DNA of 64,000 nucleotides from Spirochaetia bacterium (GCA_963677595.1 OY782041.1:4096001-4160000), one strand, 5' to 3'. Shown: positions 26,365-64,000, counted from the first letter of the stretch. The notes: generated from the sequence alone by a model not told the origin. A program made the numbers and translations.

Positions 26365-27027
26365 ATGGAGAAAGTGAAGATCGTTGGGATCTGCGGGAGC
26401 TCACGGAAGGGAGCAACCCAGTATGCGTTGGAACAGGCTTTGACTGAAGCTGAGAAGTATGGTGCTGAGGTCGAAATGATCACCTTACGGGGAAAAAAGA
26501 TCAATTTCTGTATCCAGTGTGATAAATGCGTCCGAGAGAAACAGGACCACTGCGTGATCTATGATGATGACATGCAGGACTACTATGAGAAAGTATACCA
26601 GGCAGATGGCATCATTATTGCATCTCCTGTGTATAACATGGCAGCCAATGCACTGACGTTAGCGTTCATCAACCGATTCCGCTCAAGCTTCCTGATTGCA
26701 CAGGAGAAACCTGAGTTCTTCAGTACCAAGCTTGCAGCGGCGATTACCACGGGAGGGACGCGAAACGGCGGCGAGGAGACAGCCAACGGTTCGATCGTGA
26801 ATGCTTGCAGTTCGCTCGGGTTCACCTGCGTCAGCGGTGGGATCGGTACCTACACCGGGGGCTGTGTATGGAGTCAGGACCGGAAGGCGGAAGGTGCCAA
26901 GGAAGATACGATCGGCATAAACAACTGCCGGAAGATCGGCAGAAAGATCACGGTGATGGCAAGCATCATCAAGGAAGGCAAGAAGGTAACAGGGGAGTTC
27001 CCTGTTGAGGAATATGTGATCAGGTAA
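26365..27027 (+). CDS. Iron-sulfur flavoprotein / flavodoxin-like FMN reductase
   Basis: GICGSSRKG, CIQCDKC...C, ASPVY, GGTRNGGEE. Confidence 0.88.
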   Translation: MEKVKIVGICGSSRKGATQYALEQALTEAEKYGAEVEMITLRGKKINFCIQCDKCVREKQDHCVIYDDDMQDYYEKVYQADGIIIASPVYNMAANALTLAFINRFRSSFLIAQEKPEFFSTKLAAAITTGGTRNGGEETANGSIVNACSSLGFTCVSGGIGTYTGGCVWSQDRKAEGAKEDTIGINNCRKIGRKITVMASIIKEGKKVTGEFPVEEYVIR

Positions 27028-27056
27028 GCCTTTATCAGGCAGTATGGAGGATTATT

Positions 27057-28145
27057 TTGGCTGACTTGAAAACGACGTTGTGCGGGATGGAGCTTGAGAG
27101 CCCGTTCGTACTGGGGTCCGGACCGCTCGGCTTTGATGCAGAGAGTCTGATAGAGGCAACTGCATGGGGTGCCGGGGCGGTCGTGACCAAGTCGATCGCG
27201 GCAGAACCGTTCGTGAACACCACACAGCATATGGCAATGAATGGCCCCCTTGCGCTGATCAACAACGAACTGGGATCCGACCTTCCCTTGAAGCAGTGGA
27301 CCTCCACGGAGATCCCCAAGGCGAAGGACGGCGGTGTGAAGGTCCTGATAGCCAGCGTATACGGGTATGAGTCCGATGACGAGGCGATCTATGTGGCTAA
27401 GGAGTGTGAACGCGCCGGTGCTGACATGATCGAGATCGTAAGCGGGTACCTGGAAGCAGGTAAGCTCTCTGGACTGATCAGATCCCTGAAGAGCTCAGTG
27501 AGCATACCGGTGATCGCGAAGGTGAATGCGAACTGGACGAATACCGACGATGTCGCCTACGCCTGTTCAGAGGCCGGGGCAGATGCGATCACCGCCATCG
27601 ACTCGATGGGGCCGGCGTATCGGCTGAACCTGGCTACCGCTCAGCCGGTACTCGGCGGCAGCGGCTACGGATGGGTCTCGGGGTCAAGGATCCTCCCCTT
27701 CGCACTGCGGTATGTACATGACATCGCCCTGAAGAGCACGGTAGACATCATCGGGACCGGCGGCATCACGACGCCGAAGGATGCCCTTGAGATGCTCCTT
27801 GCAGGTGCGTCCTGCTGCGGAGTATGCAGTCTTCCCATCATCAGGGGTGCATCGGTCTTCAAGACCCTGAACGAGGGGCTTGCCAAGCTTCTGGACCAGT
27901 ACGGCTACGGCAGTGTCAAACATGCGAGCAGGAGATCCCTGCAAGCGGATACCCTGCCGGAGCGGAGCATAGCAGATTTCAGGTTCAATGCGGAGACCTG
28001 CACCAGGTGCATGAAATGTGTCACGGTATGCCCATACAAAGCAAGGACGCTGGCTGGGGACGAGAACACCGTAGACGGTGATGCATGCAGGATCTGCGGG
28101 CTGTGCTTCGATGCATGCCCGAACGGATCCATTTCGATTATGTAA
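27057..28145 (+). CDS. DHOD/PreA-like FMN protein with C-terminal 2x[4Fe-4S] (paralog of 13907-14983)
   Basis: SPFVLGSGP, GAVVTKS, PVIAKVN, GTGGI, two CxxCxxCxxxCP. Confidence 0.85.
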   Translation: MADLKTTLCGMELESPFVLGSGPLGFDAESLIEATAWGAGAVVTKSIAAEPFVNTTQHMAMNGPLALINNELGSDLPLKQWTSTEIPKAKDGGVKVLIASVYGYESDDEAIYVAKECERAGADMIEIVSGYLEAGKLSGLIRSLKSSVSIPVIAKVNANWTNTDDVAYACSEAGADAITAIDSMGPAYRLNLATAQPVLGGSGYGWVSGSRILPFALRYVHDIALKSTVDIIGTGGITTPKDALEMLLAGASCCGVCSLPIIRGASVFKTLNEGLAKLLDQYGYGSVKHASRRSLQADTLPERSIADFRFNAETCTRCMKCVTVCPYKARTLAGDENTVDGDACRICGLCFDACPNGSISIM

Positions 28146-28171
28146 AGAACTAAGTATAAGGAGAATAACAG

Positions 28172-29497
28172 ATGAGCAATACAACAGGTATCAAAGCCGG
28201 ATGGCTTGTGGTTTCCTCAGAGACGGTACTCAAGGATCATGGGTTCCTCATCGAGGACGGGATCATCACTGATGTGGTCCCCAATGCAAAATTGGACGGG
28301 AAAGCAGGTATCGTCGATGCCTCGGATAAGATCGTGTGTCCGAGTTTCACCAATACCCATACCCATATGTACGAAGTGATGAAGCATGGAGCATTATGGC
28401 CTGCACTGAGCCTGAAACCGCTCCTGGAACAATTCTGGTGGCCATGTGCCGAAGACAGGCAGACCGTCGAGACGATCAAGCTGACAAGTGAGTACGCGAC
28501 GATCGAGCACCTGAGGACCGGGGTCACCATGATCAATGACATCCTCGAAGGACCGAACGCCGAGAACGGCAAACGCCTCACCACTGAGGAAGCCGTGCTC
28601 AACCGTGCCGGTGTGAAAGGTGTGCTGTCGCTGGAATCGAACGAGCGGATCAGCACGGAGAACGGGATCGAGAACCTCACCGAGAACTACGATTTCTGTA
28701 AGACAAGGAAGAACGCCAAGAACATCCGCGGGACGATCTGTACACACACCACCTTCAGTTCATCGATCCCCTTCCTGAAGAAGGCAGCCTCTATGGCACG
28801 GGAACTCGATGAGTTCCTCCAGTGCCATATGAACGAGGGACCGGATGAGGGTAATTACTGTTTCGACAAGTATGGGGTCACCACCGCGGAACTCTATAAG
28901 CAGATCGGGTACTGGAACAAGGACACCAAGGCTTTTGCGAACCAGTGCGTCTGCATGGATCCTGTCGAACTCAGCATCATGGCTGAATTCGGCGTGGGTA
29001 TCTCTACCCAGCCCCTGAGCAATGCGATCTGGGGCAACGGTATCGCCCCGGTCGAGGACATGATCAACTACGGCATCCAGGTCGGGATCGGTACTGATGA
29101 CGGTGAATGCAATTTCTTCGAGCAGATGCGCCTGATCGCCCTCCTGCAGAGAGGAAAGCGGATGCAGCCGACTGCCATGCCGACGAAGACCGTATTCAAG
29201 ATGGCTACCGAGATGGGCCCGAGAGCCATCGGGTTCGACAATGTCGGTACACTCGAGCAGGGCATGAGTGCGGACTTCATCGTATTGTCAGCGGACTCAC
29301 CAGTTCACCTGAAGGAACGCCATATCATTGATGAGATCGTCTGGTACAAGAACCCGAAAGACGTGCTCTCAGTCTACGTCAACGGGGAATGCACCTTCAG
29401 CGACGACACCGTTGCCAACCTCGATGAAGCAAGGATCAAGTCCGAGTTCAAGGACATGAACCGGGACTTCTGGAAGGGACAGCCGTACCAGGATTAG
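28172..29497 (+). CDS. Amidohydrolase, SsnA/COG0402-like (paralog of 18083-19414)
   Basis: NTHTHMY, FWWP, HTTFS, HMNEG, GIGTDD. Confidence 0.88.
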   Translation: MSNTTGIKAGWLVVSSETVLKDHGFLIEDGIITDVVPNAKLDGKAGIVDASDKIVCPSFTNTHTHMYEVMKHGALWPALSLKPLLEQFWWPCAEDRQTVETIKLTSEYATIEHLRTGVTMINDILEGPNAENGKRLTTEEAVLNRAGVKGVLSLESNERISTENGIENLTENYDFCKTRKNAKNIRGTICTHTTFSSSIPFLKKAASMARELDEFLQCHMNEGPDEGNYCFDKYGVTTAELYKQIGYWNKDTKAFANQCVCMDPVELSIMAEFGVGISTQPLSNAIWGNGIAPVEDMINYGIQVGIGTDDGECNFFEQMRLIALLQRGKRMQPTAMPTKTVFKMATEMGPRAIGFDNVGTLEQGMSADFIVLSADSPVHLKERHIIDEIVWYKNPKDVLSVYVNGECTFSDDTVANLDEARIKSEFKDMNRDFWKGQPYQD

Positions 29498-29573: not shown

Positions 29574-31919
29574 ATGAAGAATGACGGATATAGATATATA
29601 TCAAAACCTGTGGAGCGTGTGGATGGTATGCATATCGCCATGGGGGGCCCCGTGTATGCGGATGACCTTGCCCCGGCAGACTGCCTGGTCATCAAACTGC
29701 TTCGCTCCCCCTACCCTTCAGCAGCGGTCTCATCGATAGATGTGGCTGCCGCCCGGAAGATGGAGGGAGTCGCAGCTGTGTACACCTGGGAGGATACCCA
29801 GATACAGTGCACCACCGGGTTTGATTACTGCAAGTATGACCATACCCTGCTGACCAGGGTTGCACGCTATCAGGGCGACCCGGTCGCCATGGTAGTCGCT
29901 GAGGACCTGAAGACCGCAGAGCGAGCTATCGCCCGCATCAGGGTGAAGTGGGAGGTGTACGAACCTCTCACCGATCCGGAAGAGGCCCTGGACAGTGAGA
30001 AGGTGGTCCATGGTGACCAGCTCGGGAAGATCATACGTCACGGAGAACTCAAAGACCCTGAGACCGATTACCATCCTGAACGAAACCAGATCGCACGGGT
30101 GAAATATGATTTCGATGATGTGGACGCGGCCTTCGCTGAAAGTGAGGTTGTCGTCGAGACCCGGATCACGACCCAGCAGCAGGCACACGCCATGCTGGAG
30201 TCACACAGGACCTTCGCCTATATAGACCGGAGGGACAAACTCGTCATCGTCGGGTCACTCCAATCCTCGTTTGCCGTACAGCGCACGGTCGCCGTAGCCC
30301 TGGGCATAGACAGCAGGGAGATCATCGTAACCAAGGCACAGGTCGGCGGGGGCTTCGGTGGGAAGGACATGATCATCCCGGAACTCTTCACCGCATTCGC
30401 CACCTATCGGCTCAGGAGACCGACGAAGATCATCTTCACCCGACAGGAATCCCTGGCAGATACGGGAACTCGGCATGCGACCATCTTCGATATGAAGATG
30501 GGTGCAGACAAGGAAGGGAACATCACGGGGATCGACTCGACGCTCATCATGGACGGCGGCGCATACTCGGATTATTCCTTTGACGTGATCCTGACAGGGA
30601 TCTTTAACGCTTACCCACTTTTTCCGAGGACGAAGGCCATGCGGTTCAACCACCTTGGCGTCATGACGAACAAAGTCCTGGGATGCCCCCTGCGAGGCAT
30701 GGGGGCTACGCAAAACCTCTTCGCGCTGAATCGGGCTATCAGCCAGATCTCCGGGAAGCTTGATATGGACATCTCCGAGATATTCCTGAAGAACATCGGG
30801 ATGGAAGGTGATACCCATCCCCTGCTGAACGGGAACCTCCCTGAGGACCCGCGGGTGATCAACAGCAGTTCGCTCTCACGATGCATCACCAGGGCTAAGG
30901 AACTGATCGACTGGGATACCACCTACCGGAAACAGAAGAACAACGGGAATATCGTACGCGGGATCGGGATGTCAGTGGCATCCCACGCTTCGAGTGTCGC
31001 TCGGGATGACCGCGGAGCAGTCAATGTCACCTTCAACTCTGACGGGTCCTTCACGGTGTTCACCGGCCATGCCGATATCGGGACCGGTTCCGATACCGGT
31101 ATCATCCAGATCGTCGCAGAAGTCCTCCAGATGCCCATGAAGTACATCCATATCAAGGCTGCATGCACCGACACCTCCCCTCATGACAACGGCACCTATG
31201 CCTCTTCCAATATATACCGGACAGGTGGGGCGGCAAAGAAAGCGGCAGAGAAGATGAAGGGGATGCTGATCGAGAACGGCCGCCGTCTGATGGGGCTCCC
31301 TGATGAGGCTGAGATCGAATACGGCGAGAAGGGGTTCTATGCACCTGCGACCAAGGAGTTCCTCTCCATTCCAGACTTTGCCAGGAAGATGGTCTCCTAC
31401 TGGCATGGTCGTGAACAGCTGGTCGCAAGCGAGTCATTCGCCTGCGATGTCGCACCCAGCCCCTATATCGCCTGTGTCGCGGAAGTCGAGGTAGACAAGA
31501 TGACTGGAACTGTCAATCTGCTGCAGTGCATCTCCGTCGTGGACTGCGGGACGGTGATCAACAGCAACTTGGCCCGTGTGCAGGTTGACGGGGGCACTGC
31601 CCAGAGTATCGGCATGTGCCTCTATGAGAGGTTCCCTTATGTGAGTGACGGTCGACTGGCGAAGACGAACTTCCAGTCATACAAGATCCCGTCCCAGATG
31701 GATATCCCGAAGATCAGGACGGAACTGCTGCCGAGTTTCGAGCATACCGGTCCGTTCGGGGCTAAGGGTATCGGGGAGATCGCCGCGAATGCTGCCGCCC
31801 CTGCCATTGCGGATGCCGTGTTCAATGCGACCGGCGTCCATGTCAACTCTCTCCCGATCACTCCTGAGAAGATGTTCCGGGCCCTTTGGGAATCTGAGAA
31901 AGGAAGTGTCCTGTCATGA
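29574..31919 (+). CDS. XDH-family molybdopterin-binding subunit (XdhD-like)
   Basis: QAHAMLE, GGGFGGK, LRGMGATQ, DIGTGSDT, GTYASS, GAKGIGE. Confidence 0.93.
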   Translation: MKNDGYRYISKPVERVDGMHIAMGGPVYADDLAPADCLVIKLLRSPYPSAAVSSIDVAAARKMEGVAAVYTWEDTQIQCTTGFDYCKYDHTLLTRVARYQGDPVAMVVAEDLKTAERAIARIRVKWEVYEPLTDPEEALDSEKVVHGDQLGKIIRHGELKDPETDYHPERNQIARVKYDFDDVDAAFAESEVVVETRITTQQQAHAMLESHRTFAYIDRRDKLVIVGSLQSSFAVQRTVAVALGIDSREIIVTKAQVGGGFGGKDMIIPELFTAFATYRLRRPTKIIFTRQESLADTGTRHATIFDMKMGADKEGNITGIDSTLIMDGGAYSDYSFDVILTGIFNAYPLFPRTKAMRFNHLGVMTNKVLGCPLRGMGATQNLFALNRAISQISGKLDMDISEIFLKNIGMEGDTHPLLNGNLPEDPRVINSSSLSRCITRAKELIDWDTTYRKQKNNGNIVRGIGMSVASHASSVARDDRGAVNVTFNSDGSFTVFTGHADIGTGSDTGIIQIVAEVLQMPMKYIHIKAACTDTSPHDNGTYASSNIYRTGGAAKKAAEKMKGMLIENGRRLMGLPDEAEIEYGEKGFYAPATKEFLSIPDFARKMVSYWHGREQLVASESFACDVAPSPYIACVAEVEVDKMTGTVNLLQCISVVDCGTVINSNLARVQVDGGTAQSIGMCLYERFPYVSDGRLAKTNFQSYKIPSQMDIPKIRTELLPSFEHTGPFGAKGIGEIAANAAAPAIADAVFNATGVHVNSLPITPEKMFRALWESEKGSVLS

Positions 31920-32710
31920 GAATACAGAACTATGTACGAGCGGCCTCCCTCGAGGAAGCTTTTAAACTGATAACCACATCTAAGTTCAATAAGATCGTTG
32001 CCGGCGTTACCTGGCTGAAAGGGACCGGGATGAACATCAAGACTGCCGTCGACCTGATGGATCTCGATCTGAAATATATCCGCGAGGATGATGAGCATAT
32101 CCATATCGGGACGCTCTCCACCCTCCGCATGCTCGAGACCAGCGAGATCATCGAACGTGAGTGTGGATCCCTGATCCAGGATGCCGTCTCTCACCTGATT
32201 GGCATCCAGCTGAGGAACCAGATCACCATCGGAGCCCATGTCTATTCCCGGTTCGGGTTCTCCGACATCATCCCGACGTTATACGTACTCGATGCATCAG
32301 TCAGGCTATTCAAGCATGGCGAGATGAAGCTCTCCGAGTTCCTCACCTGCGATATCAGGAAGGATATCCTCATAGAGGTGCTGATCCCGAAGAAAAACCG
32401 GTCTGCACGCGTAAAGATGGTCAGGAACGCCTACAGTGACTATTCCATCCTCTGTGCTGCAGCATCAAGGACCGGGCATGCATGGATCATCTCCGTCGGG
32501 GCCCGTCCAGGACGTGCCGTACCGGCAGTGAATGCGATGGCATACCTTGCAGGCAGGGAAGATGTCGATATCGACCCCCAGGCTGCGGCTAACCTTGCGG
32601 CGGGGGAGTTGAGTTTCGCTACAAACCAGCGAGGCAGTTCCTCATACCGGAAGGAGCTGTGCAGGAACCTGATAAGACAGGAGATCGAGGAGATCATCAG
32701 TGAAAGTTAA
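31916..32710 (+). CDS. XDH-family FAD-binding subunit (YgfM-like)
   Basis: LRNQITIG...SRFGFSD, VGARP. Confidence 0.88.
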   Translation: MRIQNYVRAASLEEAFKLITTSKFNKIVAGVTWLKGTGMNIKTAVDLMDLDLKYIREDDEHIHIGTLSTLRMLETSEIIERECGSLIQDAVSHLIGIQLRNQITIGAHVYSRFGFSDIIPTLYVLDASVRLFKHGEMKLSEFLTCDIRKDILIEVLIPKKNRSARVKMVRNAYSDYSILCAAASRTGHAWIISVGARPGRAVPAVNAMAYLAGREDVDIDPQAAANLAAGELSFATNQRGSSSYRKELCRNLIRQEIEEIISES

Positions 32711-33155
32711 CCTTTGGGTAAATGATAAGCAGGTGGAGTGGGATGTTGCTCCAGATGACTTCCTGGCAGATACGCTCCGTTCCCATGGATTCAAGAGCGT
32801 GAAGACCGGCTGCGATGAGGGGGCCTGCGGGACCTGTACGGTCTGGATGGACGGCACCCCCATCCTCTCATGCCAGATGCTCACGGTGAAGGCTGCAGGC
32901 AGCCGTATCACCACGATCGAGGGCGTGAAGGAAGAGGCGGAAGAGCTGGCGAGGTTCATGGTTTCGAAAGGTACGGAAGCCTGCGGGTACTGTGCCCCGG
33001 GATTCATCATGCAGGTCCTGGCCATGAAGCGGGAATTGAAAGACCCCACCTATGATGAGATACGGGAATACCTGAACGGGAACCTATGCAGGTGTACCGG
33101 GTATGCGAGCCGGAATGAATCGATTGATGAATACCTGAAACAGGTCAACCTGTAG
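32700..33155 (+). CDS. XDH-family 2x[2Fe-2S] subunit
   Basis: GCDEGACGTCTV, CGYCAPG, NLCRCTGY. Confidence 0.93.
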   Translation: MKVNLWVNDKQVEWDVAPDDFLADTLRSHGFKSVKTGCDEGACGTCTVWMDGTPILSCQMLTVKAAGSRITTIEGVKEEAEELARFMVSKGTEACGYCAPGFIMQVLAMKRELKDPTYDEIREYLNGNLCRCTGYASRNESIDEYLKQVNL

Positions 33156-33172: not shown

Positions 33173-34705
33173 GTGAACGTCATTGAGATGAAGGGCATCA
33201 GCAAGTATTTCGGGAACTTCGCCGCCAACGACCATGTCGATTTCAACCTGAAGAAGGGAGAGATCCACGCACTGCTCGGGGAGAACGGCGCGGGGAAGAC
33301 CACGCTCATGAACGTGCTGTATGGGCTGTACCACCCGAGCGAGGGGAATATCCTCGTGGATGGGGAGACCGTGTCCCTCACCAGTCCCAATGTGGCGATC
33401 AACCATGGGATCGGGATGGTACACCAGCATTTCATGCTGATCCCGCAGCTGACTGTTGCTCAGAACATCTTCCTGGGGATGAAGGGCAGCGGGTTCTTCT
33501 TCAATGCCGCGCGTAAGGCTGAGCGGGTCCGTAAACTGGAGAGCCGGTATGATTTCGATATCGACCCGAATGCCGAAGTGTCAGATCTCTCGGTAGGGAT
33601 GCAGCAGAAGGTAGAAATCCTCAAGGCTCTCATGCGCGATATCAACGTGCTCATCCTTGATGAACCGACCGCAGTCCTCACGCCGCAGGAGGTGGAGAGA
33701 CTCTTCACCTCCCTGAAGTCGATGACCCGTGAGGGGTATTCCATCATCCTCATCACCCACCGTATGGAGGAGGTCATGGCATACTGTGACCGTGTCACGG
33801 TCATGCGGGCAGGCAGGGTCGTTGCCACCGAGAACATCAAGGATGTGAACGAGGCAAAGCTTGCCAACATGATGATCGGCAGGGATGTGCTGCTGGAGAT
33901 CGAGAAAGAGGAGTCGAAACCGGGAGACCCTATCCTGAAGACCCACAACATCTGTGTATGCGGGAAACACGGCATCAATGCCGTGGAGGATGTCTCCTTC
34001 CAGGTCCATGCAGGGGAGATAGTCGGCATCGCGGGAGTCGACGGCAACGGCCAGCTTGAACTGGGCGAGACCCTTGCAGGCCTGCGCAGGATGGATTCTG
34101 GGATCCTCGAGATGAACGGGGAGACGGTCCACCTTCCCACGACAGCCAAGATGATGGGACACGGCCTCGGATATATCCCCGATGACCGCCAGAAGAAGGG
34201 CCTCGTGATGCCGTTCTCGATCAAAGAGAACATCCTGCTCGGTACCCACACATCACCCGATTACTGCAAGCGTAATTTCATCGACTACAAGTGCCTGAAC
34301 AGACGTGCCACCGATCTGGTGAACGCGTTTGACGTCCGGTACCAGAGTGTGGAGCAGAAAGCGCACGACCTGTCAGGAGGAAACCAGCAGAAGGTCATCC
34401 TGGCACGCGTCTTCTCACGGGACCCCAAGCTCATCCTCGCCATCCAGCCGACCCGCGGTCTCGATATCGGGGCGATAGAGTTCGTACGGCAGCAGCTCGT
34501 CCATGCGAGAGCCCAGGGCAAGGGCATACTGCTCATATCGACGGACCTCGACGAGATCATGAGCCTGAGCGATAGAGTACTGGTCATGTTCAAGGGGAAG
34601 ATATCCGAATCCTACCCCACACGTGAGATAACCGGGACGAAGATCGGGCTGCTGATGTCGGGGAAGAAACTGATCGATACTGAAGAAAAAGAATTGAGAG
34701 CGTAG
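33173..34705 (+). CDS. ABC transporter ATPase, nucleoside/purine (CUT2) type
   Basis: GENGAGKTT, LSVGMQQKVEILK, LDEPT, LSGGNQQK, QPTRGLDIGA. Confidence 0.95.
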   Translation: MNVIEMKGISKYFGNFAANDHVDFNLKKGEIHALLGENGAGKTTLMNVLYGLYHPSEGNILVDGETVSLTSPNVAINHGIGMVHQHFMLIPQLTVAQNIFLGMKGSGFFFNAARKAERVRKLESRYDFDIDPNAEVSDLSVGMQQKVEILKALMRDINVLILDEPTAVLTPQEVERLFTSLKSMTREGYSIILITHRMEEVMAYCDRVTVMRAGRVVATENIKDVNEAKLANMMIGRDVLLEIEKEESKPGDPILKTHNICVCGKHGINAVEDVSFQVHAGEIVGIAGVDGNGQLELGETLAGLRRMDSGILEMNGETVHLPTTAKMMGHGLGYIPDDRQKKGLVMPFSIKENILLGTHTSPDYCKRNFIDYKCLNRRATDLVNAFDVRYQSVEQKAHDLSGGNQQKVILARVFSRDPKLILAIQPTRGLDIGAIEFVRQQLVHARAQGKGILLISTDLDEIMSLSDRVLVMFKGKISESYPTREITGTKIGLLMSGKKLIDTEEKELRA

Positions 34706-34710
34706 AGCAT

Positions 34711-35787
34711 ATGATAAGACGAATACTTGATACGATGAAGAAACCGCTCCTGTCGGCAGTCCTCGCAGTCGCCGTGGTGGCATTGATCCTGATCGCTGCA
34801 GGCTATGATGCATCGAACGGGTTCTATGCCATGTTCTCTGCCACCTTCGGCAAGTTGAAGGGTTTCACCAACACCCTCAACAAAGCTACCCCCCTGATGC
34901 TCTGCGCCCTGGCTTTTGCCGTCGGGAGCAAAGGCAGCATCATGAACATGGGAATGGACGGACAGCTGCTGATCGGGGCAGTGCTCGCGTCAATCATCGG
35001 GATCAGTTTCGGAGGCCTCCCCTTCTATATCCTGATCCCCCTTGTCTGTATCGCCGGGGCAATAGGCGGAGCTATCTGGTCGTTCGTTCCAGGTCTGCTC
35101 AAGTCCCGGTTCGGTATTTCAGAGATCATCACGACCATCATGTTCAACTATATTGCCAGAGGCATCGTCGCATATCTTTGTGCCGGTCCGATGAAGAGTC
35201 CTGACACCTCACAGAATATCTCGCGGTATATCTCGGAGAACGCACAGTTCAGGAATCTCATACCGCATACCAAACTGCATGTGAGCTTCTTCATCGCTGT
35301 GGTGCTGGCGATCGGCTTGTTCATATTCCTCTACAAGACCCGCTACGGGTTCGAGATGCGGGCGGTCGGACTGAACAGGATCGCGGCTCAGGCCAATGGG
35401 ATCAGCACGGAACGGACAATGCTCACCACGATGCTGCTCAGCGGGGCCATAGCCGGGTTCGCAGGGTCACTGGAGGTCATGGGTACCACGCATTACATGA
35501 TCGAGACCCTCACCGACAGCTTCGGGTTCACGGGGATCGCCGTATCGATCCTGGTGAACAACAACCCGATCGGCATCATATTCAGCTCATTCATCTTCGG
35601 GATCCTGCGTACAGGAGCTACTGCCATGCAGCGGCTTGCTGATATCTCAAGCTCCTTCGTCGGTGTGTTCGAGGGCATGATCATCATCTTCATCGCCGTG
35701 GCGACCGTGAAGGACCCGAATAGGAAGGAAGCTGTTCTGAAACAGCCTGAGACACCAGAACCTGGTGATGAGGAGGTACTGTCATGA
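34711..35787 (+). CDS. ABC permease (BMP/nucleoside system)
   Basis: NMGMDGQ, EIITTIMFNY, GFEMRAVG.N; hydrophobic. Confidence 0.92.
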   Translation: MIRRILDTMKKPLLSAVLAVAVVALILIAAGYDASNGFYAMFSATFGKLKGFTNTLNKATPLMLCALAFAVGSKGSIMNMGMDGQLLIGAVLASIIGISFGGLPFYILIPLVCIAGAIGGAIWSFVPGLLKSRFGISEIITTIMFNYIARGIVAYLCAGPMKSPDTSQNISRYISENAQFRNLIPHTKLHVSFFIAVVLAIGLFIFLYKTRYGFEMRAVGLNRIAAQANGISTERTMLTTMLLSGAIAGFAGSLEVMGTTHYMIETLTDSFGFTGIAVSILVNNNPIGIIFSSFIFGILRTGATAMQRLADISSSFVGVFEGMIIIFIAVATVKDPNRKEAVLKQPETPEPGDEEVLS

Positions 35788-52232: not shown

Positions 52233-52235
52233 TAT

Positions 52236-54646: not shown

Positions 54647-54666
54647 AACGCATCCTCCTCTCTGAC

Positions 54667-54726
54667 TGACACCGGTGTCAATCAGTCTGTAATCAGATGG
54701 TAAGTCATATTGACACCGGTGTCAAT
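54667..54726. promoter_or_regulatory. Two perfect LacI-type operators upstream of lacI
   Basis: TGACACCGGTGTCA (54667-54680) and ATTGACACCGGTGTCAAT (54709-54726). Confidence 0.8.
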
Positions 54727-54974: not shown

Positions 54975-56345
54975 CTAGGTTTTCGAGATTCCCATCTGCA
55001 TTCGATGCAATTCTTCAATTTTCCGGTAGTTCCTCAGCAGTGCGATCGTTGTGATCACGATCGCCAACCCATCCGCTGCAGGGACTGCAGCCCAGACACC
55101 GGTCAGGCCGAACTGGTAAGGCAGTACGGTCAGCAGCGGTACCAGACAGATGAACTGGCGAAGCATACTCAAGATGAGGGCCTTCTTGCCCTGGTCAGTG
55201 GCCTGGAAGAATGTGATCCCCAGGATGTTCAGACCCAGCAGGGGAAGCATGATGACATAGATCCTCAAGCCTCGTACTGCAACTCCCATGGTAGGTGATG
55301 ATGGGTTGATGAACATGCCCATGAAGAACTGCGGGAAGATCTGAAGGGCGAGGAAGATGAGCGTGGAGAAGCCTACAGCCCATAGGATCCCGAGCTTCAG
55401 GGTCCTGTTCACGCGGTCGTGCTTATCTGCCCCGAAGTTATACCCGATGATAGGCTGCATCCCCTGCTGCAGCCCCATCAGGGGAAGGAAGAAGAGGGTG
55501 AACAGGCCATTGATCGCCCCCATCGAGGTAATGGCTTCTGTCCCGCCGTAGATTGAGAGTCTCTGGTTCAGGAAGCCGAGGGCTATGCTGTTCCCCATGG
55601 TCCCGATGAAGGTCGCCATCCCGGTGATCATGATCTGCTTCACGATCACGGCATGGATGATGAAGTCGGAGATCGTGAGTTCGAGATGGCTCTTTCCCCG
55701 AAGATAGAAGGGTATCAGTATGAAGAATCCGGACATCTGGCCGATCGCCGTAGCTGCTGCCGCACCCATGACTCCCCATCCGAACACGATGATGAACAGC
55801 GCATCGAGAACAATGTTCACAACTGCAGAAGCCAGCATCGCCACCATCGGCAGGTGGGCGTTTCCCTCAGTCCGTATGGTATGGTTGAAGATGAAGGCGA
55901 TCATATTAAAGATGAACCCGCCAAGGATGATCTTCATGTAGATATTCGCCTGGCTCAGGATACTCTCATCGGCACCGAAGAGCTGCAGGATGTTGTCCAG
56001 CTGCCAGAAGAGTACGGCGACCAGAGCGATCACGATGATGATCCCGATGCTGATACCGTTGGCAAAATAGCGTCCGGCCTTCTTCACATCCTTCCTGCCG
56101 AACTGGATGGCCATGCAGGCAGACACACCGCCTGCGAGCAGCCCGCCGAGGGCGAAGAGGATCATCATCACGGGGAACGCTACCGTCAGGGCAGCAAGTG
56201 CGCCCTCCCCTACGAACCTCCCGATGAAGATCCTGTCCACCACGTTGTAGACTGCGTTCACCACCATGGCGAAGATCGAAGGGAATGAGAATGCCCAAAG
56301 GAGCTTACCGACCGGCTTCGTCCCCAGTTCTTCCTGTCTTTTCAT
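54975..56345 (-). CDS. MATE-family efflux transporter (MepA-like)
   Basis: YNVVDRIFIG, RTEGN, NIVLD.LFI, GAAAATAIGQ, QPIIGYNFGA. Confidence 0.93.
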   Translation of the reverse strand: MKRQEELGTKPVGKLLWAFSFPSIFAMVVNAVYNVVDRIFIGRFVGEGALAALTVAFPVMMILFALGGLLAGGVSACMAIQFGRKDVKKAGRYFANGISIGIIIVIALVAVLFWQLDNILQLFGADESILSQANIYMKIILGGFIFNMIAFIFNHTIRTEGNAHLPMVAMLASAVVNIVLDALFIIVFGWGVMGAAAATAIGQMSGFFILIPFYLRGKSHLELTISDFIIHAVIVKQIMITGMATFIGTMGNSIALGFLNQRLSIYGGTEAITSMGAINGLFTLFFLPLMGLQQGMQPIIGYNFGADKHDRVNRTLKLGILWAVGFSTLIFLALQIFPQFFMGMFINPSSPTMGVAVRGLRIYVIMLPLLGLNILGITFFQATDQGKKALILSMLRQFICLVPLLTVLPYQFGLTGVWAAVPAADGLAIVITTIALLRNYRKIEELHRMQMGISKT

Positions 56346-56496
56346 AATTAACACCTATCTCTTTATCTTATGAGGATTTCTAACTAGCTAAAGAAGCGGT
56401 GTGTCTGTAGGGTTCTTTTTTAACATTCAGCGGATCTCCCGTCTTGGAGGGAGAACGATCTGTCTCTGTTTGTAGATCACGTACAGATACAATCTG

Positions 56497-59125: not shown

Positions 59126-60460
59126 TTACTGCTTCAGGAACGCATCCAGATCCACTGCAGGATAGGTGACTCGCTTGTAATCATCCTTGATCTTGAGGTC
59201 GATGGTCGCATCGATCGCGAACTTCGTCTGCATCCCCTCCTCATCAGTTGTTGGATCGTTCTCCATGCCCTGGGCATAGGGGATGGTGATGATGTCCTTC
59301 TTCGCATCCACCCTGGTAGACATGGCCCAGAGGATGTCGCTCGGCATGTAGATGTTCACATCGGGATCGACGATAACGGCGATCTTGATGTTCACATGCG
59401 TCATGAGCGCTGCAAGGGCAACATTCTTCGGTTCCCCCGAATTGGTCTTGTTCAGGGCGATGACCGCCATGAAGCCGCCGGTATAGGGGGTAAGATGAAC
59501 GTCCGTTACATTGGGTGAGACGTGAGTGACCATCCGTTTCAGCATGGGTTCTCGAGAAAGCACGTTGCCGACATTCACATGTTCGTTGGATGCAGGGACG
59601 ATGGTCTGGTAGATCGGGTCATTCCGGTATGAGATGGAAGTCACCTCGATGACCGGCATATCTCTATGCTCGCCGTAGTGCCCGGTGAACTCAGCCAGGG
59701 GACCTTCGTCCTCCCACTCCTTCACCTTCACATAGCCTTCGACGAGGATCTCGGTATCGGCAGGCACATTGATACCGACAGAGCCGGCAGCGACTTTCAG
59801 GGGTGCCCCGTTCAGTGCCCCTGCCAACATGGCCTCATCCTCATCGATACGGAACCCTGTGGACATCTCGACAGCCGGGTCCACGCCGATAGCGATCGCT
59901 ATGGGCATATTCTCCCCTTTTGCCTCATATTTCCGGAAGAACTGGAAGATATGCCGCCATTCGTTCATCATGAGACCCAGTTTCCTCGGCCCTTTCACCT
60001 GCAGGCGGTTGAACGAGAAGTTCTGCCGGCCTGTCTCGGGGTCCTTGGAGACGATGATGCCCCCCGTGATATAGGGGCCGGCATCGCCGGGATTATGATA
60101 GGGGATGGGCAGCTGTTCCCGGAGGTTGATATCATCACCAGTGATGCGGTTCTCCAAAAACGGAGGGTTCTCAACAAGTTCCGGCTCGATCAGGTTCCCC
60201 AGGGCGGCATCCACCTTCTGGTTGATCTCCGGTTCTCTACAGTCGAGTGCCAATGCGATACGCTTCATCGTACCAAGGACACCCCCGATCACCGGGATCC
60301 CCGAGGGGTGGTCGGTATTGGTGAACAAGCCTGCAGGCCTGCTCTCCTTCTCCATGGCATCCTCGATCGCCGCGAACTCGAAGTCGAGCTTCACACGTTT
60401 ATCTATCTCGAGCAATTGCCCGTTCTGTCTCAGTTTCTCCAGGAATGATCTCAATTCCAT
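59126..60460 (-). CDS. UbiD-family prFMN-dependent (de)carboxylase (second paralog)
   Basis: DAGPYIT, NFSFNR, IGVDP, EGPLAEFTGHY, VIVDPDVNI, AIDAT. Confidence 0.93.
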   Translation of the reverse strand: MELRSFLEKLRQNGQLLEIDKRVKLDFEFAAIEDAMEKESRPAGLFTNTDHPSGIPVIGGVLGTMKRIALALDCREPEINQKVDAALGNLIEPELVENPPFLENRITGDDINLREQLPIPYHNPGDAGPYITGGIIVSKDPETGRQNFSFNRLQVKGPRKLGLMMNEWRHIFQFFRKYEAKGENMPIAIAIGVDPAVEMSTGFRIDEDEAMLAGALNGAPLKVAAGSVGINVPADTEILVEGYVKVKEWEDEGPLAEFTGHYGEHRDMPVIEVTSISYRNDPIYQTIVPASNEHVNVGNVLSREPMLKRMVTHVSPNVTDVHLTPYTGGFMAVIALNKTNSGEPKNVALAALMTHVNIKIAVIVDPDVNIYMPSDILWAMSTRVDAKKDIITIPYAQGMENDPTTDEEGMQTKFAIDATIDLKIKDDYKRVTYPAVDLDAFLKQ

Positions 60461-60519: not shown

Positions 60520-61326
60520 CTATTTCAGGATCCCCTCTTTCACGAATGTCTGCCGAATCTCGGAGGCATGCTTCTGGAACTCCGGGGTATCCTGGATACT
60601 CAGGTCCCTCGGACGTTTCAGGTCAACAAGTTCTTTCTTGTACAGCACCTTGCCGGGCCGTTTCGACATGACCAGGACCCGGTCTGCCAGGAAGACAGCC
60701 TCGTATATATTGTGGGTGATGAACAGGAGCGTATTACAGTTTTTCTGCCAGATCTTGACCAGGTCGGCAGTCATCTGTTCCCGGGTGAGGGAATCGAGAG
60801 CTCCGAACGGTTCATCCATCAGCAGTAAGGGGGGGCTTGTTATCAGCGCCCTGCAGATCGACACGCGCTGTCTCATCCCCCCGGACAGTTCATAGGGGTA
60901 CCGGTTCTCGAAGCCAGCGAGCCCCACCATGTCGAGGAGCTCGAATGCCCGCTCACGATACTTCTCTGCCGGTCCGAGCTTCTTTATCTCTATTGGGAGC
61001 AGGATATTGTCCAGCACCGTCCGCCAGTCCATCAGGAAGTCCTGCTGGAAGACGAACCCGATATCGGTGTAGGGATTCTTCACCACCGTATCGGCGATCT
61101 TGATCTCCCCGGTTGTGCTCTTGATAAGCCCGCTGATGAGCATCAGCAGCGTACTCTTGCCGCAGCCGCTCGGGCCCACTATCGAGAGGAACTCTCCCGC
61201 CTTGATATCAAGGGAGATCTCATCAAGGGCCAGCAGCGGCCCGTCAGACGTATCATATACCTTGCTTACTCCTGAGATGCTTATAGGAAGGCCTTTTGAA
61301 CGGCCGTCTTTTTCAATGTCAGTCAC
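60520..61326 (-). CDS. ABC ATPase, NitT/TauT family
   Basis: GPSGCGKST, YP.ELSGGMRQR, LMDEPFGALD, ITH...EAVFLADR. Confidence 0.95.
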   Translation of the reverse strand: MTDIEKDGRSKGLPISISGVSKVYDTSDGPLLALDEISLDIKAGEFLSIVGPSGCGKSTLLMLISGLIKSTTGEIKIADTVVKNPYTDIGFVFQQDFLMDWRTVLDNILLPIEIKKLGPAEKYRERAFELLDMVGLAGFENRYPYELSGGMRQRVSICRALITSPPLLLMDEPFGALDSLTREQMTADLVKIWQKNCNTLLFITHNIYEAVFLADRVLVMSKRPGKVLYKKELVDLKRPRDLSIQDTPEFQKHASEIRQTFVKEGILK

Positions 61327-61399
61327 AGTTCTCTCCTCTTCAACACGTCGCCATGTGTTGTGATCCGTTGTCATCGTATGCTCTCATACGTAGATCGTA

Positions 61400-62236
61400 T
61401 TATTCTTTCCTGCTTGGGTCACCCTTGATGGCGACTCGTTCGATCATATTGACGATGTTAAACAGGACGATCCCCATCAGGGACAGCAGGATCAGTATGG
61501 CGAAGACCATGGGTGTGTCGAGGTTCCCCCCGGCTACTACCTGGTAATAGCCAAGTCCCTTGTTTGCCGCAACATACTCCCCTACTACGGCACCGACGAC
61601 CGAGAGGGTGATCCCGACCTTCAAGCCGCCGAAGATGTTCGGCAATGCCTGCGGTACACGGAACTTCCAGAACTGCTGCATCCCGCTCGCCCCGAGCGAC
61701 CTCGCAAGGTACAGCATTTCCCGGCTGATCGACTTGAGGCCGATGACCGTGTTCACGATGATCGGGAAGAAACAGACCAGGAACGCCACGAAGAGCTTCG
61801 GAAAAATGCTGAATCCCCACCAGGATACCAGGATAGGCGCTAATGCCACCTTAGGGATCGCCTGGGCGGAGACAAGCAGCGCATAAGCCGTCTTCTCGAA
61901 GAGGGGGACATAGACGATCAGGATCGCCAGGGGGAACCCGATACCCATGGCGATACCGAACCCGAGCAGCACTTCATACAGGGTCACCCAGCCATGTTTG
62001 GCCAGGACCTGCCAGTGCGCGGCAACAGCCTTGACGATCACTGAAGGTGCCGGGACCAGGTATTCAGGCGTATTGAGCACCCGGACCAGGACCTCCCACA
62101 GGATTACCAGGAAAACAACTGATAGGATCGTGTACATATTATTCTTGAAGAACGTGAGGAATATCCCGTTCTTCTTTTTCTTAGCCGCCTCACTTCGTTT
62201 ATCAGCGGTCACGTTAGTTCCTGATATCTCTGCCAT
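61400..62236 (-). CDS. ABC permease, NitT/TauT family
   Basis: PAPS, IPKVALAP, FFPIIVNT..GL, GAVVGE....KGLG. Confidence 0.93.
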   Translation of the reverse strand: MAEISGTNVTADKRSEAAKKKKNGIFLTFFKNNMYTILSVVFLVILWEVLVRVLNTPEYLVPAPSVIVKAVAAHWQVLAKHGWVTLYEVLLGFGIAMGIGFPLAILIVYVPLFEKTAYALLVSAQAIPKVALAPILVSWWGFSIFPKLFVAFLVCFFPIIVNTVIGLKSISREMLYLARSLGASGMQQFWKFRVPQALPNIFGGLKVGITLSVVGAVVGEYVAANKGLGYYQVVAGGNLDTPMVFAILILLSLMGIVLFNIVNMIERVAIKGDPSRKE

Positions 62237-62336
62237 AAAGCGTATCACCTCATATGTTGGATTTCAGTAGTGGGGCCAGACCCGTCATGTGTCCAGCCCC
62301 ATGCTGGATGTTTATCATCTCACGTTCTCTGCGTCC

Positions 62337-63368
62337 CTACATCTCTATGAATTCATTCGTGTAGTAGTTGCCGACCGGTTCTCGAGAGTCGATAGCACCA
62401 TTGTCATACAGGATCGAGATAGTCTGCTCGAGGCTGTCCTCAGAGATCCAACCCAATGGTTTGCCCTCGGTCTCCGGGGTAGTGAACAGTTCGATGGTCC
62501 TCTCGACCTGCTTTCGCGTGATCTCCTTCACGAGAGAATCAGGGAAGAGTGCAGACATGATATCTGCAGCTTCCACAGGATGTGCTACCGTGTATTCTGC
62601 ACCTCTCCGGACAGCCCGGTTGACAGCTGCGACGATCTCAGGATTCTCCTCGATATATTCTGTCGAAGCAACGATACCGTGGGCCATCATGTTGAACCCG
62701 TAATCGCCGAGGAAGAAATAGTTGAATTCCATCCCCATCTTCGCTTCCATGGTAGCGAGGTCATTGGTAGCGTATCCACCCATCATCTCTACGTCCCCGT
62801 TCAGGAAAGCAGCAGTCTTGGCACCCCAGTCTGCGATGACCAGTTCCACACTGTCAGGATCAACTCCATTGTATGACAGGAACGCATCCAGGACTACCGG
62901 CAGTGACCCTCCAGCTGTCTCAACAACCTTCTTCCCAGCCATATCGGCAGGCCCGTCCAGTTTCACGTCCGGCATCGCCATGACGACCTGGGGAAGCTTC
63001 TGCAGGATACAGGAGGTCATCTTGACATCCATGCCTTTCGTTCGTGCCACGATCATGTCATCAGCTGCAAGATAGGAGAACTGGTCATCCCCGGAGATGA
63101 GCAGCTGGATAGGAGTCGCTTTCTCAGAACCTTCGAGGATGTTGATGTCTATCCCCTCCTCCTCGAAGTACCCCTTCTCCTGGGCTACGAAGAGATGCGA
63201 ATATTCACCCTTAACCAGCCAGCTGAGCCTCAGGTTGATCGGGGTGAGCCCACCCTCTTCTTCGACTGTCTCTGCTGCCCCGCCTGCGAAACAGAGCGCT
63301 GAGACACTTAATACCATCAATACGACCATAGCCGTCTTCCAGAATCTTTTTCCTCGTACCATACTCAT
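62337..63368 (-). CDS. ABC solute-binding protein, NMT1/THI5-like
   Basis: LRLSW.......FVAQEKGYFEEEGI; signal ...CFAGGAAE. Confidence 0.88.
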   Translation of the reverse strand: MSMVRGKRFWKTAMVVLMVLSVSALCFAGGAAETVEEEGGLTPINLRLSWLVKGEYSHLFVAQEKGYFEEEGIDINILEGSEKATPIQLLISGDDQFSYLAADDMIVARTKGMDVKMTSCILQKLPQVVMAMPDVKLDGPADMAGKKVVETAGGSLPVVLDAFLSYNGVDPDSVELVIADWGAKTAAFLNGDVEMMGGYATNDLATMEAKMGMEFNYFFLGDYGFNMMAHGIVASTEYIEENPEIVAAVNRAVRRGAEYTVAHPVEAADIMSALFPDSLVKEITRKQVERTIELFTTPETEGKPLGWISEDSLEQTISILYDNGAIDSREPVGNYYTNEFIEM

Positions 63369-63445
63369 CTTCTCCTCCTGTGGAATATATATATGATCGG
63401 TCTTTCATATTGCCGTCACATACCAAACATCATAAGCCGTAAGGA

Positions 63446-64000
63446 TCACGACCTGCTCTCTACCCCTGCTTTCATGCACAAGGATACTTCCGCTAAGCGA
63501 TTACCGACATTGATAAGGCTCTCACAGCCGATCTCGTCATCGTCCACGCCCTTCCTACCATTGTCCTTCGACCAGACCATCGCCCCGGTGTAGTTCCCCG
63601 GTTCATTGCCTACGAAGATGATGCCTCGTGTCAGACACGCATGCGCGATAGCACTCACGGTCATCTCCTGACCCCCGTGGCGTGTCCCGCCGACCGAGAT
63701 CGCTGAGGCGAGCTTGTTCCGTAAGACCCCACCCTTCAGCTTATGCAGGCATCGCATCCTGGTGAACAGCGCATGGAGCTGCGGTGTCACACTCATCACA
63801 TACACCGGGCTTGCGAAGAGGAAGGCATCAGCCTCCTTCAGCTTGGGATACAGCTGCTGCATGTCATCATCGATGATGCAGAGACTGTCGTGCTTCTTAC
63901 AGTAGTTGCAGTGGTTGCATGGCGCTATATCCATGCCCTTCAATGCCACGATCTCCGTCTCCACTCCCTCATGCTTCGCAGCCTCTGAGAGGGCGATCTC
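63446..64000 (-). CDS. Iron-sulfur flavoprotein, 5' end outside window
   Basis: CNHCNYC....C, ASPVY, GGTRHGGQE, YTGAMVWS; frame open to window edge. Confidence 0.88.
   Translation of the reverse strand, partial: EIALSEAAKHEGVETEIVALKGMDIAPCNHCNYCKKHDSLCIIDDDMQQLYPKLKEADAFLFASPVYVMSVTPQLHALFTRMRCLHKLKGGVLRNKLASAISVGGTRHGGQEMTVSAIAHACLTRGIIFVGNEPGNYTGAMVWSKDNGRKGVDDDEIGCESLINVGNRLAEVSLCMKAGVESRS

Follow-up and report, generated by a model that had tools for sequence, protein, structure and literature searches.

A conserved gene island of a spirochaete as a candidate anaerobic system for pterin and lumazine catabolism

Introduction

It was only in 2025 that genes were described for aerobic pterin and lumazine breakdown and for the reductive breakdown of urate (PMC12391406; bioRxiv 10.1101/2025.05.19.654654). 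Aerobic degradation is encoded by cluster I (LuDH-DHLI-XCDC-PDA) of Cupriavidus sp. LA-1 (PMC12391406), and the reductive urate (2,8-dioxopurine) pathway runs through XdhD-YgfK/UacX-SsnA-HyuA-YgeY-YgeW-YgeX (bioRxiv 10.1101/2025.05.19.654654, 10.1101/2025.04.24.650524). The fin neighbourhood of Clostridium scindens, associated with conversion of riboflavin to lumichrome, is the closest anaerobic precedent for side-chain removal (bioRxiv 10.64898/2026.02.13.705874). In the literature searched, no route of pteridine destruction in anoxic sediments, digesters or guts was found, and the open literature (most subscription papers lay outside that search) yielded no anaerobic pterin pathway with FolB or UbiD. 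Here we analyse a catabolic gene island in a 64,000-nt stretch of a Spirochaetia bacterium genome (GCA_963677595.1, OY782041.1:4096001-4160000), called the window below, with coordinates counted from its first letter.

A preliminary description of this DNA had proposed an anaerobic system for the catabolism of pteridines, lumazines or their glycosides. We conclude that the island represents a real, conserved and apparently undescribed anaerobic system of heterocycle catabolism, assembled from known enzyme families, which most likely serves pterins or lumazines. Judged from protein sequence and gene neighbourhoods, some pteridine is a likely substrate; for the narrower reading, oxygen-independent catabolism of 6-substituted pterins and lumazines with reductive ring cleavage, our confidence is a little above even.

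Comparison with the aerobic lumazine cluster

Genes in and downstream of the window were assigned by Pfam and NCBIfam profile searches with family cut-offs. Every gene class of the preliminary inventory was recovered in the window, with five FolB, two UbiD and two aldehyde:ferredoxin oxidoreductase (AOR) proteins over cut-offs or matched. The three iron-sulfur flavoproteins (ISFs) that it counted correspond to three FMN_red/ISF-like proteins, to which one flavodoxin_2 protein can be added. Two entries need qualification: both putative tautomerases are 4-oxalocrotonate tautomerase (4-OT)-like, but their best matches fall just under the cut-offs, and the sugar ATP-binding cassette (ABC) importer has a binding protein and two permeases but no ATPase in the cluster.

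In place of the LA-1 sequences, the comparison used a plasmid cluster of Ensifer whose gene set is the same and whose genes were assigned by synteny. Both LA-1 cluster I and the island combine a deaminase, a Mo-hydroxylase of the xanthine oxidoreductase family, UbiD with UbiX, and nucleobase-type uptake; the Ensifer CDA-like deaminase has a single match in the host genome, the CodA-like deaminase of the island (36%), and the Ensifer BMP protein finds the second BMP protein of the island as the best of eight (34%). In contrast to cluster I, the island lacks DHLI (an amidohydrolase_2 pair) and its GTP-binding helper, with the Ensifer copies matching at 22-24% outside the island, and its UbiDs are not orthologues of XCDC, for which the Ensifer XCDC-type protein served as reference, while UbiX is present. 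It also adds FolB proteins with Gln at position 74 (Gln-FolB), 4-OT, AOR, alcohol and aldehyde dehydrogenases, a GH3 glycosidase, ISFs and a reductive ring-opening set, and its hosts belong to anaerobe lineages not listed in the available part of PMC12391406. Because DHLI is missing and the UbiDs are not of the XCDC type, the island is not a member of the cluster I type.

The same comparison bears on the end of the pathway. The preliminary description had proposed a hand-off to purine degradation through tetrahydroxypteridine and xanthine-8-carboxylate (EC 5.5.1.3), and a route of the LA-1 kind would lead from lumazine through 6,7-dihydroxylumazine to xanthine-8-carboxylate, which UbiD would convert to xanthine. 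In keeping with such a route, the Mo-hydroxylase at 15193..18013 is the genome's best match to the Ensifer LuDH-like subunit (37.7%), a canonical urate cluster is present in the genome, a UbiD with 40% identity to the XCDC type stands beside a clade UbiD in Bacillota (locus L004), and an Mch-like cyclohydrolase could in principle close the imidazole ring. Nevertheless, DHLI-type genes are absent from the island and from all fetched loci, UbiD1 and UbiD2 have 30-31% identity to the XCDC type and fall in a separate group, and the island has ring-opening paralogues of its own. We consider this route very improbable, and the proposed hand-off is not upheld.

The UbiD clade and its gene neighbourhoods

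The UbiD domains, the catalytic Arg/Glu motif and a UbiX partner are all present for the island UbiDs. In a tree of 43 clade rows and references, their clade (FastTree support 0.98) was sister to HmfF-context proteins, and the XCDC-type UbiD of the Ensifer cluster fell outside it. A scan of GTDB genomes returned 357 related UbiD stretches, of which the best 80 were kept, mostly from Chloroflexota (Anaerolineae), Bacillota and Spirochaetota. Neighbours were counted up to 10 kb on each side (47 of the 80 loci span at least 15 kb and 33 less than 15 kb), and genome-wide counts refer to 50 of the 80 genomes, with controls from Spirochaetota only.

The most frequent neighbours of clade UbiD genes among the 80 loci were a TRZ/ATZ-type amidohydrolase (44), an SsnA paralogue (33), dihydropyrimidinase (31), a carbamoyltransferase (29), AOR (29) and E1-beta (25), followed by YgeY-like hydrolases (24), short-chain dehydrogenases/reductases (SDRs) with the motif TGX3RXG (24), XdhA (20), UbiX (14), DhnA (14), PreA (13), GH31 (13), UshA-like nucleotidase (10), Mch (3), FolB (2) and GH3 (1). 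At least one pteridine marker was found at 29 loci. Single operons in relatives unite Gln-FolB, UbiD, deaminase, BMP importer, YgeY, carbamoyltransferase and SsnA paralogue (L016); the same operon type occurs without UbiD in L084 and without FolB in L007, L010 and L023.

HmfF, a 2,5-furandicarboxylate decarboxylase (PDB 6h6v), is the closest solved UbiD and the sister group in the tree, and has in common with the island proteins a heteroaromatic carboxylate substrate class (predicted for the latter) and the catalytic motif for prenylated FMN (prFMN). The island UbiDs differ from it in sequence (35-39% identity), in distinct W-R-H and G-F-R motifs and in their surroundings, which lack furoyl-CoA ligase and all other hmf genes. 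An HmfF-like furan role was set aside as a minor rival, the best plasmid matches being hmf-type clusters at 34-39% with different neighbours.

Two further observations concern the neighbourhoods of the clade. The XCDC-like UbiD gene of L004, a Bacillota metagenome-assembled genome (MAG), lies directly upstream of the clade UbiD gene (L004:1-3015). Related loci (L230:5882-6862; L232:8117-8875; L231:22-4506) further encode a protein of the RibD-C/DHFR fold, an ECF S-component and, together with GH31, UroD-like and pterin-binding methyltransferases.

A putative ring-opening module of paralogues

The preliminary description had placed a purine-degradation-like cluster next to the island. Because a true YgeW gene is present at about 3.96 Mb (G000:3961501 in the host genome), next to SsnA-, YgeY- and Xdh-like genes and some 135 kb before the window, this cluster is better read as the system's own paralogous module for reductive ring opening. 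A PreA-dihydropyrimidinase cluster, recognized from BLAST matches and gene order, lies at about 1.765 Mb. With the canonical clusters at these two places, the island was rejected as the urate or pyrimidine pathway of the genome.

Like the reductive urate pathway, the system has XDH-family enzymes, PydA/UacX-like reductases, SsnA-like and M20 hydrolases and a carbamoyltransferase, together with dihydropyrimidinase in the related loci. Unlike that pathway, it has no YgeX-like lyase, its paralogues are duplicated and tied to UbiD, the genome has a canonical YgeW cluster at another place, and its proteins stay below the SsnA model (scores of 217 and 171, cut-off 444) and the knotted YgeW model. 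These scores make both SsnA-like proteins paralogues, so that the earlier label 'SsnA-like', given to the copy scoring 171, stands as a family relation but not as an equivalog. The carbamoyltransferase at 12843..13868 scored 203 against the YgeW cut-off of 453 and 268 against the OTC cut-off of 306 (NCBIfam), and both YgeY-family hydrolases exceeded the NF009555 cut-off. Neither a YgeX diaminopropionate lyase nor HyuA was found among the island genes with Pfam and NCBIfam; dihydropyrimidinase homologues are encoded elsewhere in the genome. The island thus resembles the reductive urate pathway in ring chemistry and is not a member of it; one urate preprint mentions neither pterin nor UbiD.

Close homologues of the carbamoyltransferase (E<=1e-100) were present in 33 of the 50 UbiD-clade genomes and in none of 300 genomes of the phylum, where 13 weaker matches (44-48%) were obtained. 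The SsnA paralogue has homologues in 39 of the 50 (no control sample). Relatives have operons in which the ring-opening module is joined to UbiD, and that of L016 includes Gln-FolB as well; an SsnA-paralogue gene directly adjoins Gln-FolB in L088 and L089, and the L010 operon includes a carbamate-kinase-like gene, identified from the start of its sequence and not by profile.

FolB proteins with glutamine at position 74

All five FolB matches of the 4.3-Mb genome lie inside the island, a clustering beyond chance, and exceed the PF02152 cut-off. The lack of folK, folP and folE, noted earlier for the window, holds for the whole genome: a genome-wide profile search found no folK (HPPK), folE (GTP cyclohydrolase I, PF01227) or folP (DHPS), with FolE2 not searched and genome completeness at 95.4%. 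The sole Pterin_bind match is in a 1210-aa frame read as MetH. Because these genes are missing, the FolBs do not serve folate synthesis, and a role in folate synthesis or salvage was rejected.

Glu22, Tyr54, Glu74 and Lys100 are binding or catalytic residues of dihydroneopterin aldolase (DHNA; PMC11328599, PMC2713229), contributed by neighbouring chains (PMC11328599). The island proteins share with FolB (EC 4.1.2.25) the T-fold, 1dhn being the top Foldseek match of FolB1, and the equivalents of Glu22 and Tyr54 in all five copies. They differ from it in their catabolic context, in a genome without folK and folP, and in the active site: the LLE/LVE glutamate of solved DHNAs aligns with Gln in FolB1, position 74 is Gln in all five, and Lys100, retained in FolB1 and both A subunits, is Glu in both B subunits. 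No island FolB has the full set of four residues. In DHNA, Glu74 reads the 2-amino/N3 edge of the pterin, and uricase uses Gln for a 2-oxo edge. The presence of Gln in all five therefore suggests a deaminated pterin, that is, a lumazine, as substrate.

Four of the FolBs and both tautomerases arose when a 4OT-FolB(A)-FolB(B) cassette was duplicated in tandem, so that the five proteins represent only three types. The duplication was revealed by direct alignment and missed by Tandem Repeats Finder; between the copies, the A subunits are 74% and the B subunits 92% identical. Since neighbouring chains share active-site residues in DHNA, a mixed oligomer is plausible, in which A would probably supply the lysine and B the tyrosine.

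Gln is found in 22 of the 23 closest homologues (self included) and Asn in the remaining one. A profile search over 1.84 billion representatives, with the best 150 kept (161 domains), gave 143 Glu, 17 Gln and one gap at this position. In a quick tree (121 columns, rows with fewer than 85 aligned residues left out), 61 of the 62 Gln/Asn rows fell in one clade of 63 rows (SH-aLRT 89). Among fetched loci, folK or folP lies within 3 kb of 58 of 77 Glu-FolBs and of none of 19 Gln-FolBs. Both types occur together in three Bacillota genomes, two of them of the Moorella group (G063, G064, G074), with the Gln copy in a catabolic operon.

One member of the Gln clade, at L083/L201, adjoins pyridoxal-phosphate enzymes and a BMP ABC importer, not folK or folP. 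Tandem two-domain FolB fusions were seen in both the Gln and Glu lineages (P0144-P0146 (Gln), L212:4723-5451; P0149, P0151, P0154, P0158, P0194, P0224, P0225).

Pteridine-related families in relatives

TGX3RXG is the motif of PTR1 and FolM (PMC1971073). The SDRs that carry it near clade UbiD genes have pteridine reductase as best NCBIfam match, and the motif Arg is invariant in 19 of them, themselves chosen for carrying TGX3RXG. Mch homologues occur in 22 of the 50 UbiD-clade genomes, including six of the eight labelled Spirochaetota, and in none of a sample of 301 from the phylum. In L085, L086, L088 and L202, one strand encodes both Mch and Gln-FolB, at most about 9 kb apart; L088 has the same ISF-XdhABC-PreA-SsnA run as the window at 26365-33155, with Mch inside and Gln-FolB at its end. 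Three unrelated pteridine-handling families, Gln-FolB, the PTR1/FolM-motif SDR and Mch, thus meet at a single UbiD clade, subject in each case to a caveat given below.

The carriers of Mch homologues are bacteria not known for methanopterin chemistry. A genome has at most five Mch matches, and genes for E1/E2/E3, lipoate enzymes, SDRs and amidohydrolases recur in linkage with them (L231, L233, L234, L236, L239, L020). The host genome has an SDR with TGX3RXG and a Tyr-containing motif (G000:C1:839709-840434, L216); it is FolM-like, in a genome without folE, folK and folP, and possibly serves pterin salvage.

A core of UbiD and reductive ring opening might instead serve another C1-substituted heterocycle, such as (glucosyl)hydroxymethylpyrimidine, thiamine-derived hydroxymethylpyrimidine, a 7-deazapurine or a furan, with the pteridine-binding families as repurposed folds. 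PreA, dihydropyrimidinase and M20 hydrolase are pyrimidine-type enzymes, ThiY is the best solved relative of the NMT1 protein, the UbiD clade is sister to HmfF, and alcohol dehydrogenase, aldehyde dehydrogenase and AOR with UbiD would suit any heterocycle bearing CH2OH; the SDR His (see below) and FolB Gln denote altered specificity. The convergence just described speaks against such a substrate, as do the canonical pyrimidine cluster elsewhere in the genome and the two SsnA, two YgeY, two PreA and four Mo-hydroxylase proteins, which suggest a bicyclic ring. We regard it as unlikely.

Zn-dependent alcohol dehydrogenase, FGGY kinase and the aldolase DhnA recur near Gln-FolB and Mch in relatives, which would also fit a ribityl-bearing 2,4-dioxo heterocycle (riboflavin/FMN, 8-ribityllumazine, F420/FO). 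Its chain would be oxidised, phosphorylated and cut by a class I aldolase, its uracil-like ring opened, and UbiD would act on a quinoxaline or pyrazine carboxylate. DhnA (14 of 80 loci) and the UshA-like nucleotidase (10 of 80), the five ISF-like flavoproteins of the island and Gln74, compatible with any 2,4-dioxo edge, are in line with this substrate, and BMP and THI5-like proteins can bind riboflavin. The riboflavin-induced fin neighbourhood, likened here by description and not by sequence, likewise joins anaerobic side-chain removal from a pteridine-type ring to a class I aldolase and alcohol and aldehyde dehydrogenases, but it has RibF and glycine-reductase-like genes, and the available part of the paper reports no FolB, UbiD or ring opening (bioRxiv 10.64898/2026.02.13.705874). 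Moreover, the island contains no DhnA, kinase or RibF, its FolBs retain the aldolase residues for a C6 side chain, the substrates of PTR1-motif SDRs and of Mch are pterins and not flavins, and flavins offer no amino group to the deaminase-type enzymes found at 44 of the 80 loci. A ribityl substrate therefore appears rather unlikely.

Proposed pathway

The substrate class of the preliminary description, and its order of uptake, deamination, trimming, oxidation and UbiD decarboxylation, are supported by the Glu74Gln clade, the missing folate genes and the association of UbiD with PTR1/FolM-motif SDRs and Mch. In the pathway that we favour for 6-substituted pterins and lumazines, ABC importers would take up the pterins and GH3 would hydrolyse glycosides. 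The CodA-like deaminase, the TRZ/ATZ-type amidohydrolase or both would strip the 2-amino group to give a lumazine, and ISF and flavodoxin_2 flavoproteins (PTR1-type SDRs in relatives) would set the 7,8-dihydro state. Gln74-FolB would then catalyse a retro-aldol cleavage at C1'-C2', yielding 6-hydroxymethyl-dihydrolumazine and a two-carbon aldehyde. Fe-alcohol dehydrogenase, aldehyde dehydrogenase and AOR could oxidise the C6-CH2OH to COOH and dispose of the aldehyde, and UbiD, with prFMN made by UbiX, would release CO2. Mo-hydroxylases may adjust ring oxygenation by hydroxylation or dehydroxylation, PreA/UacX-like enzymes would reduce the ring, and SsnA paralogues with a dihydropyrimidinase encoded elsewhere in the genome would hydrolyse it. 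YgeY-type hydrolases and the carbamoyltransferase would free the ureido groups, partly as carbamoyl phosphate for ATP. Alternatively, UbiD could act after ring opening on a pyrazine carboxylate, and two UbiD paralogues would allow both. In relatives, an E1/E2/E3 complex with SDRs, or Zn-alcohol dehydrogenase with FGGY kinase and DhnA, may trim other side chains to the same acid. Lumazine-6-carboxylate has been cited as a candidate intermediate of folate degradation (PMC9513972).

Several findings weigh against this pathway. In the DNA covered, 51 of the 80 UbiD loci lack a pteridine marker (33 of the 80 being shorter than 15 kb), kin genomes are not independent samples, and the controls come from a single phylum. 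FolB lies within 10 kb of a clade UbiD in only two of 80 loci, and Gln-FolB occurs in eight of the 50 genomes, none of them Chloroflexota; FolB is an accessory module of the system. The Gln clade includes one member with Glu (L083/L201). The TGX3RXG SDRs score 208 against the pteridine-reductase cut-off of 288 bits and have an invariant His in place of the catalytic Tyr of YxxxK; PDB sequence and fold searches placed FabG first and, in one of them, FolM 17th, with no PTR1 among the matches listed, and a fold search with the predicted structure did not single out PTR1. In the host, the single TGX3RXG SDR seen lies outside the island, and no Mch was found in its genome. The nearest solved UbiD is a furan enzyme. 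Binding proteins match ThiY (the best solved relative of the NMT1 protein) and atrazine or nucleoside binders only distantly in PDB searches, in which the island amidohydrolases gave only distant, generic deaminase matches. Finally, an Oceanispirochaeta MAG (G061), the closest named relative, has no carbamoyltransferase match at E<=1e-100.

A wider reading, held tentatively and with clearly less than even confidence, is an anaerobic funnel through which necromass-recycling Chloroflexota, Bacillota and Spirochaetota mineralise neopterin and biopterin glycosides and remnants of folate and methanopterin. Side-chain trimming by modules that can stand in for one another (a heteromeric dihydrolumazine aldolase with the Gln switch, a complex resembling acetoin dehydrogenase, a polyol dehydrogenase-kinase-aldolase set and Mch-like cyclohydrolases) would feed a new prFMN decarboxylase and then reductive lumazine cleavage with ATP from carbamoyl phosphate. 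Reductive ring degradation would then have a third branch, for lumazine, in addition to those for pyrimidines and urate.

If the proposed pathway is correct, the island supplies candidate enzymes for each step, a single residue in a T-fold enzyme (Glu to Gln) switches specificity from pterin to lumazine, a substrate class can be assigned to a UbiD clade whose members, several hundred sequences at the least, now bear the label furandicarboxylate decarboxylase, and the Mch homologues in bacteria without methanopterin chemistry are explained. Cultured Moorella- and Thermanaeromonas-type bacteria carry clade genes, which makes the reading practical to test.

Regulation and a possible glycoside link

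The palindrome TGACA-n-CG-n-TGTCA occurs five times in the genome against 0.25 expected. Three copies lie in the island (26247, 54666 and 54710), the first in a 605-bp gap with 3e-5 copies expected, and the other two precede a 46%-identical LacI paralogue upstream of another GH3 gene at 2.79 Mb. Genes from lacI to GH3 are separated by at most 89 bp, except for one gap of 203 bp. Because the operator is common to both, the LacI of this sugar-ABC/AOR/FolB1/UbiD1/GH3 operon probably also controls the convergent ISF-PreA-SsnA-XDH-BMP operon. The shared operator supports a glycoside substrate in this genome, with cross-talk from the LacI paralogue possible. The GH3 step proposed earlier gains from the operator, but it is local, with GH3 near clade UbiD at one of 80 loci and GH31 at 13. 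At 2.79 Mb, the LacI paralogue and GH3 (G000:C1:2794205-2797283, L224) adjoin a divergent sugar ABC with its own LacI.

That the island comprises separate operons for different heterocycles, with FolBs in side-chain repair or detoxification and no single pathway, seems quite improbable. At least four regulators (LacI, RpiR, two GntR) and gene sets that differ widely among relatives would suit this explanation, and in the stretch fetched the closest named relative lacks GH3, AOR and FolB1. On the other side stand the one operator common to two island operons and the single operons of relatives that unite Gln-FolB, UbiD and ring-opening genes (L016).

Host genome and gene map

The host genome (4.33 Mb, one contig, 95.4% complete) is that of an anaerobe-type spirochaete; it is assigned to Spirochaetota, and most named relatives of the flanking RsmH come from spirochaetes. 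The island spans about 66 kb, from 11971 to some 14 kb beyond the window end (Table 1). The part past the end (G000:C1:4160583-4173919) adds ISFs, RpiR, UbiX, a TRZ/ATZ-type amidohydrolase, XdhA, GntR, a second BMP ABC importer and the CodA-like deaminase. The island does not stand out by its GC content (55.3% vs 54.6%). Its distribution is sporadic, with FolB matches in none of five genomes of the same family and UbiD1 matches (E<=1e-90) in none of 300 of the phylum. The Oceanispirochaeta MAG has a single FolB cassette copy adjoining the same NMT1 importer, both UbiDs, UbiX, Fe-alcohol dehydrogenase and aldehyde dehydrogenase.

Table 1. Features of the island within the window
Feature	Coordinates	Strand	Basis
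GntR/UTRA regulator, left island edge	11971..12693	-	Pfam
Carbamoyltransferase paralogue, predicted ureido phosphorolysis	12843..13868	-	NCBIfam, below YgeW and OTC/ArgF cut-offs
PreA/UacX-like FMN-4Fe4S reductase copy a, predicted ring dearomatisation	13907..15019	-	Pfam, NCBIfam
Fe-S subunit and Mo-hydroxylase large subunit	15193..18013	+	Pfam; comparison with Ensifer LuDH-like subunit
SsnA-paralogue amidohydrolase copy a, predicted ring hydrolysis	18083..19414	-	NCBIfam, 217 vs cut-off 444
YgeY-family M20 hydrolase	19407..20624	-	NCBIfam, above cut-off
XdhABC-like Mo-hydroxylase	20640..24292	-	Pfam, NCBIfam
Second YgeY-family M20 hydrolase	24583..25758	-	NCBIfam, above cut-off
LacI-type palindromic operator, upstream of plus-strand operon	26247..26262	.	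Palindrome scan
ISF-like flavoprotein (FMN_red)	26365..27027	+	Pfam
PreA/UacX-like (DHOD/PreA-like) flavoprotein reductase copy b	27057..28145	+	Pfam, NCBIfam
SsnA-paralogue amidohydrolase copy b	28172..29497	+	NCBIfam, 171 vs cut-off 444
XdhABC-like Mo-hydroxylase	29574..33155	+	Pfam, NCBIfam
BMP-family ABC importer: ATPase, two permeases, binding protein	33173..37913	+	Pfam
GH3 glycosidase, final gene of long minus-strand operon	37979..40303	-	Pfam
AOR-family aldehyde:ferredoxin oxidoreductase 1	40338..42215	-	Pfam
Fe-alcohol dehydrogenase	42463-43587	-	Pfam
Aldehyde dehydrogenase	43598-45088	-	Pfam
UbiD1, predicted prFMN decarboxylase, uncharacterised clade, W-R-H motif	45123..46520	-	Over TIGR00148
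FolB1, Glu74 to Gln; Glu22, Tyr54, Lys100 equivalents retained	46549..46932	-	Pfam PF02152, alignment
AOR-family enzyme 2	46997..48970	-	Pfam
ISF-like flavoprotein	48855-49496	-	Pfam
Flavodoxin_2 reductase	49541-50188	-	Pfam
Sugar-type ABC: two permeases and binding protein, no ATPase in cluster	50392..53537	-	Pfam
LacI regulator	53627..54646	-	Pfam
Two LacI-type operator copies (54666, 54710), upstream of lacI	54666..54725	.	Palindrome scan
MATE exporter	54975..56354	-	Pfam
Cassette copy 2, FolB-B (Gln74; Lys100 to Glu)	56588-56956	-	Pfam, alignment
Cassette copy 2, FolB-A (Gln74; Lys retained)	56953-57384	-	Pfam, alignment; 4-bp overlap with FolB-B
Cassette copy 2, 4-OT-like	57414-57608	-	Best match just below cut-off
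Cassette copy 1, FolB-B	57682-58059	-	Pfam, alignment
Cassette copy 1, FolB-A	58066-58479	-	Pfam, alignment
Cassette copy 1, 4-OT-like	58546-58743	-	Best match just below cut-off
UbiD2, same clade as UbiD1, 45% identity to UbiD1	59126..60460	-	Over TIGR00148
NMT1/THI5-like ABC importer	60520..63368	-	Pfam, PDB search
ISF-like flavoprotein, cut by window end	63446..64000	-	Pfam

The whole genome (G000) encodes ten paralogues of the XdhA-like kind, nine of the AOR-like kind and eight BMP proteins, and it has a third UbiD, unrelated, at 2724821; this wealth of genes suggests a scavenger of heterocycles and aldehydes. Inside the minus-strand operon, a 69-aa gene (42230-42439, minus strand) has no Pfam match and two paralogues in the genome (70% and 62%). 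Upstream of the MATE gene, at 56568-56583, lies the palindrome GTTGTATATACAAC, which we take to resemble a GntR-type operator. In the flank, a DUF4912 gene and two GH57 genes (5095-8328) are unrelated to the island.

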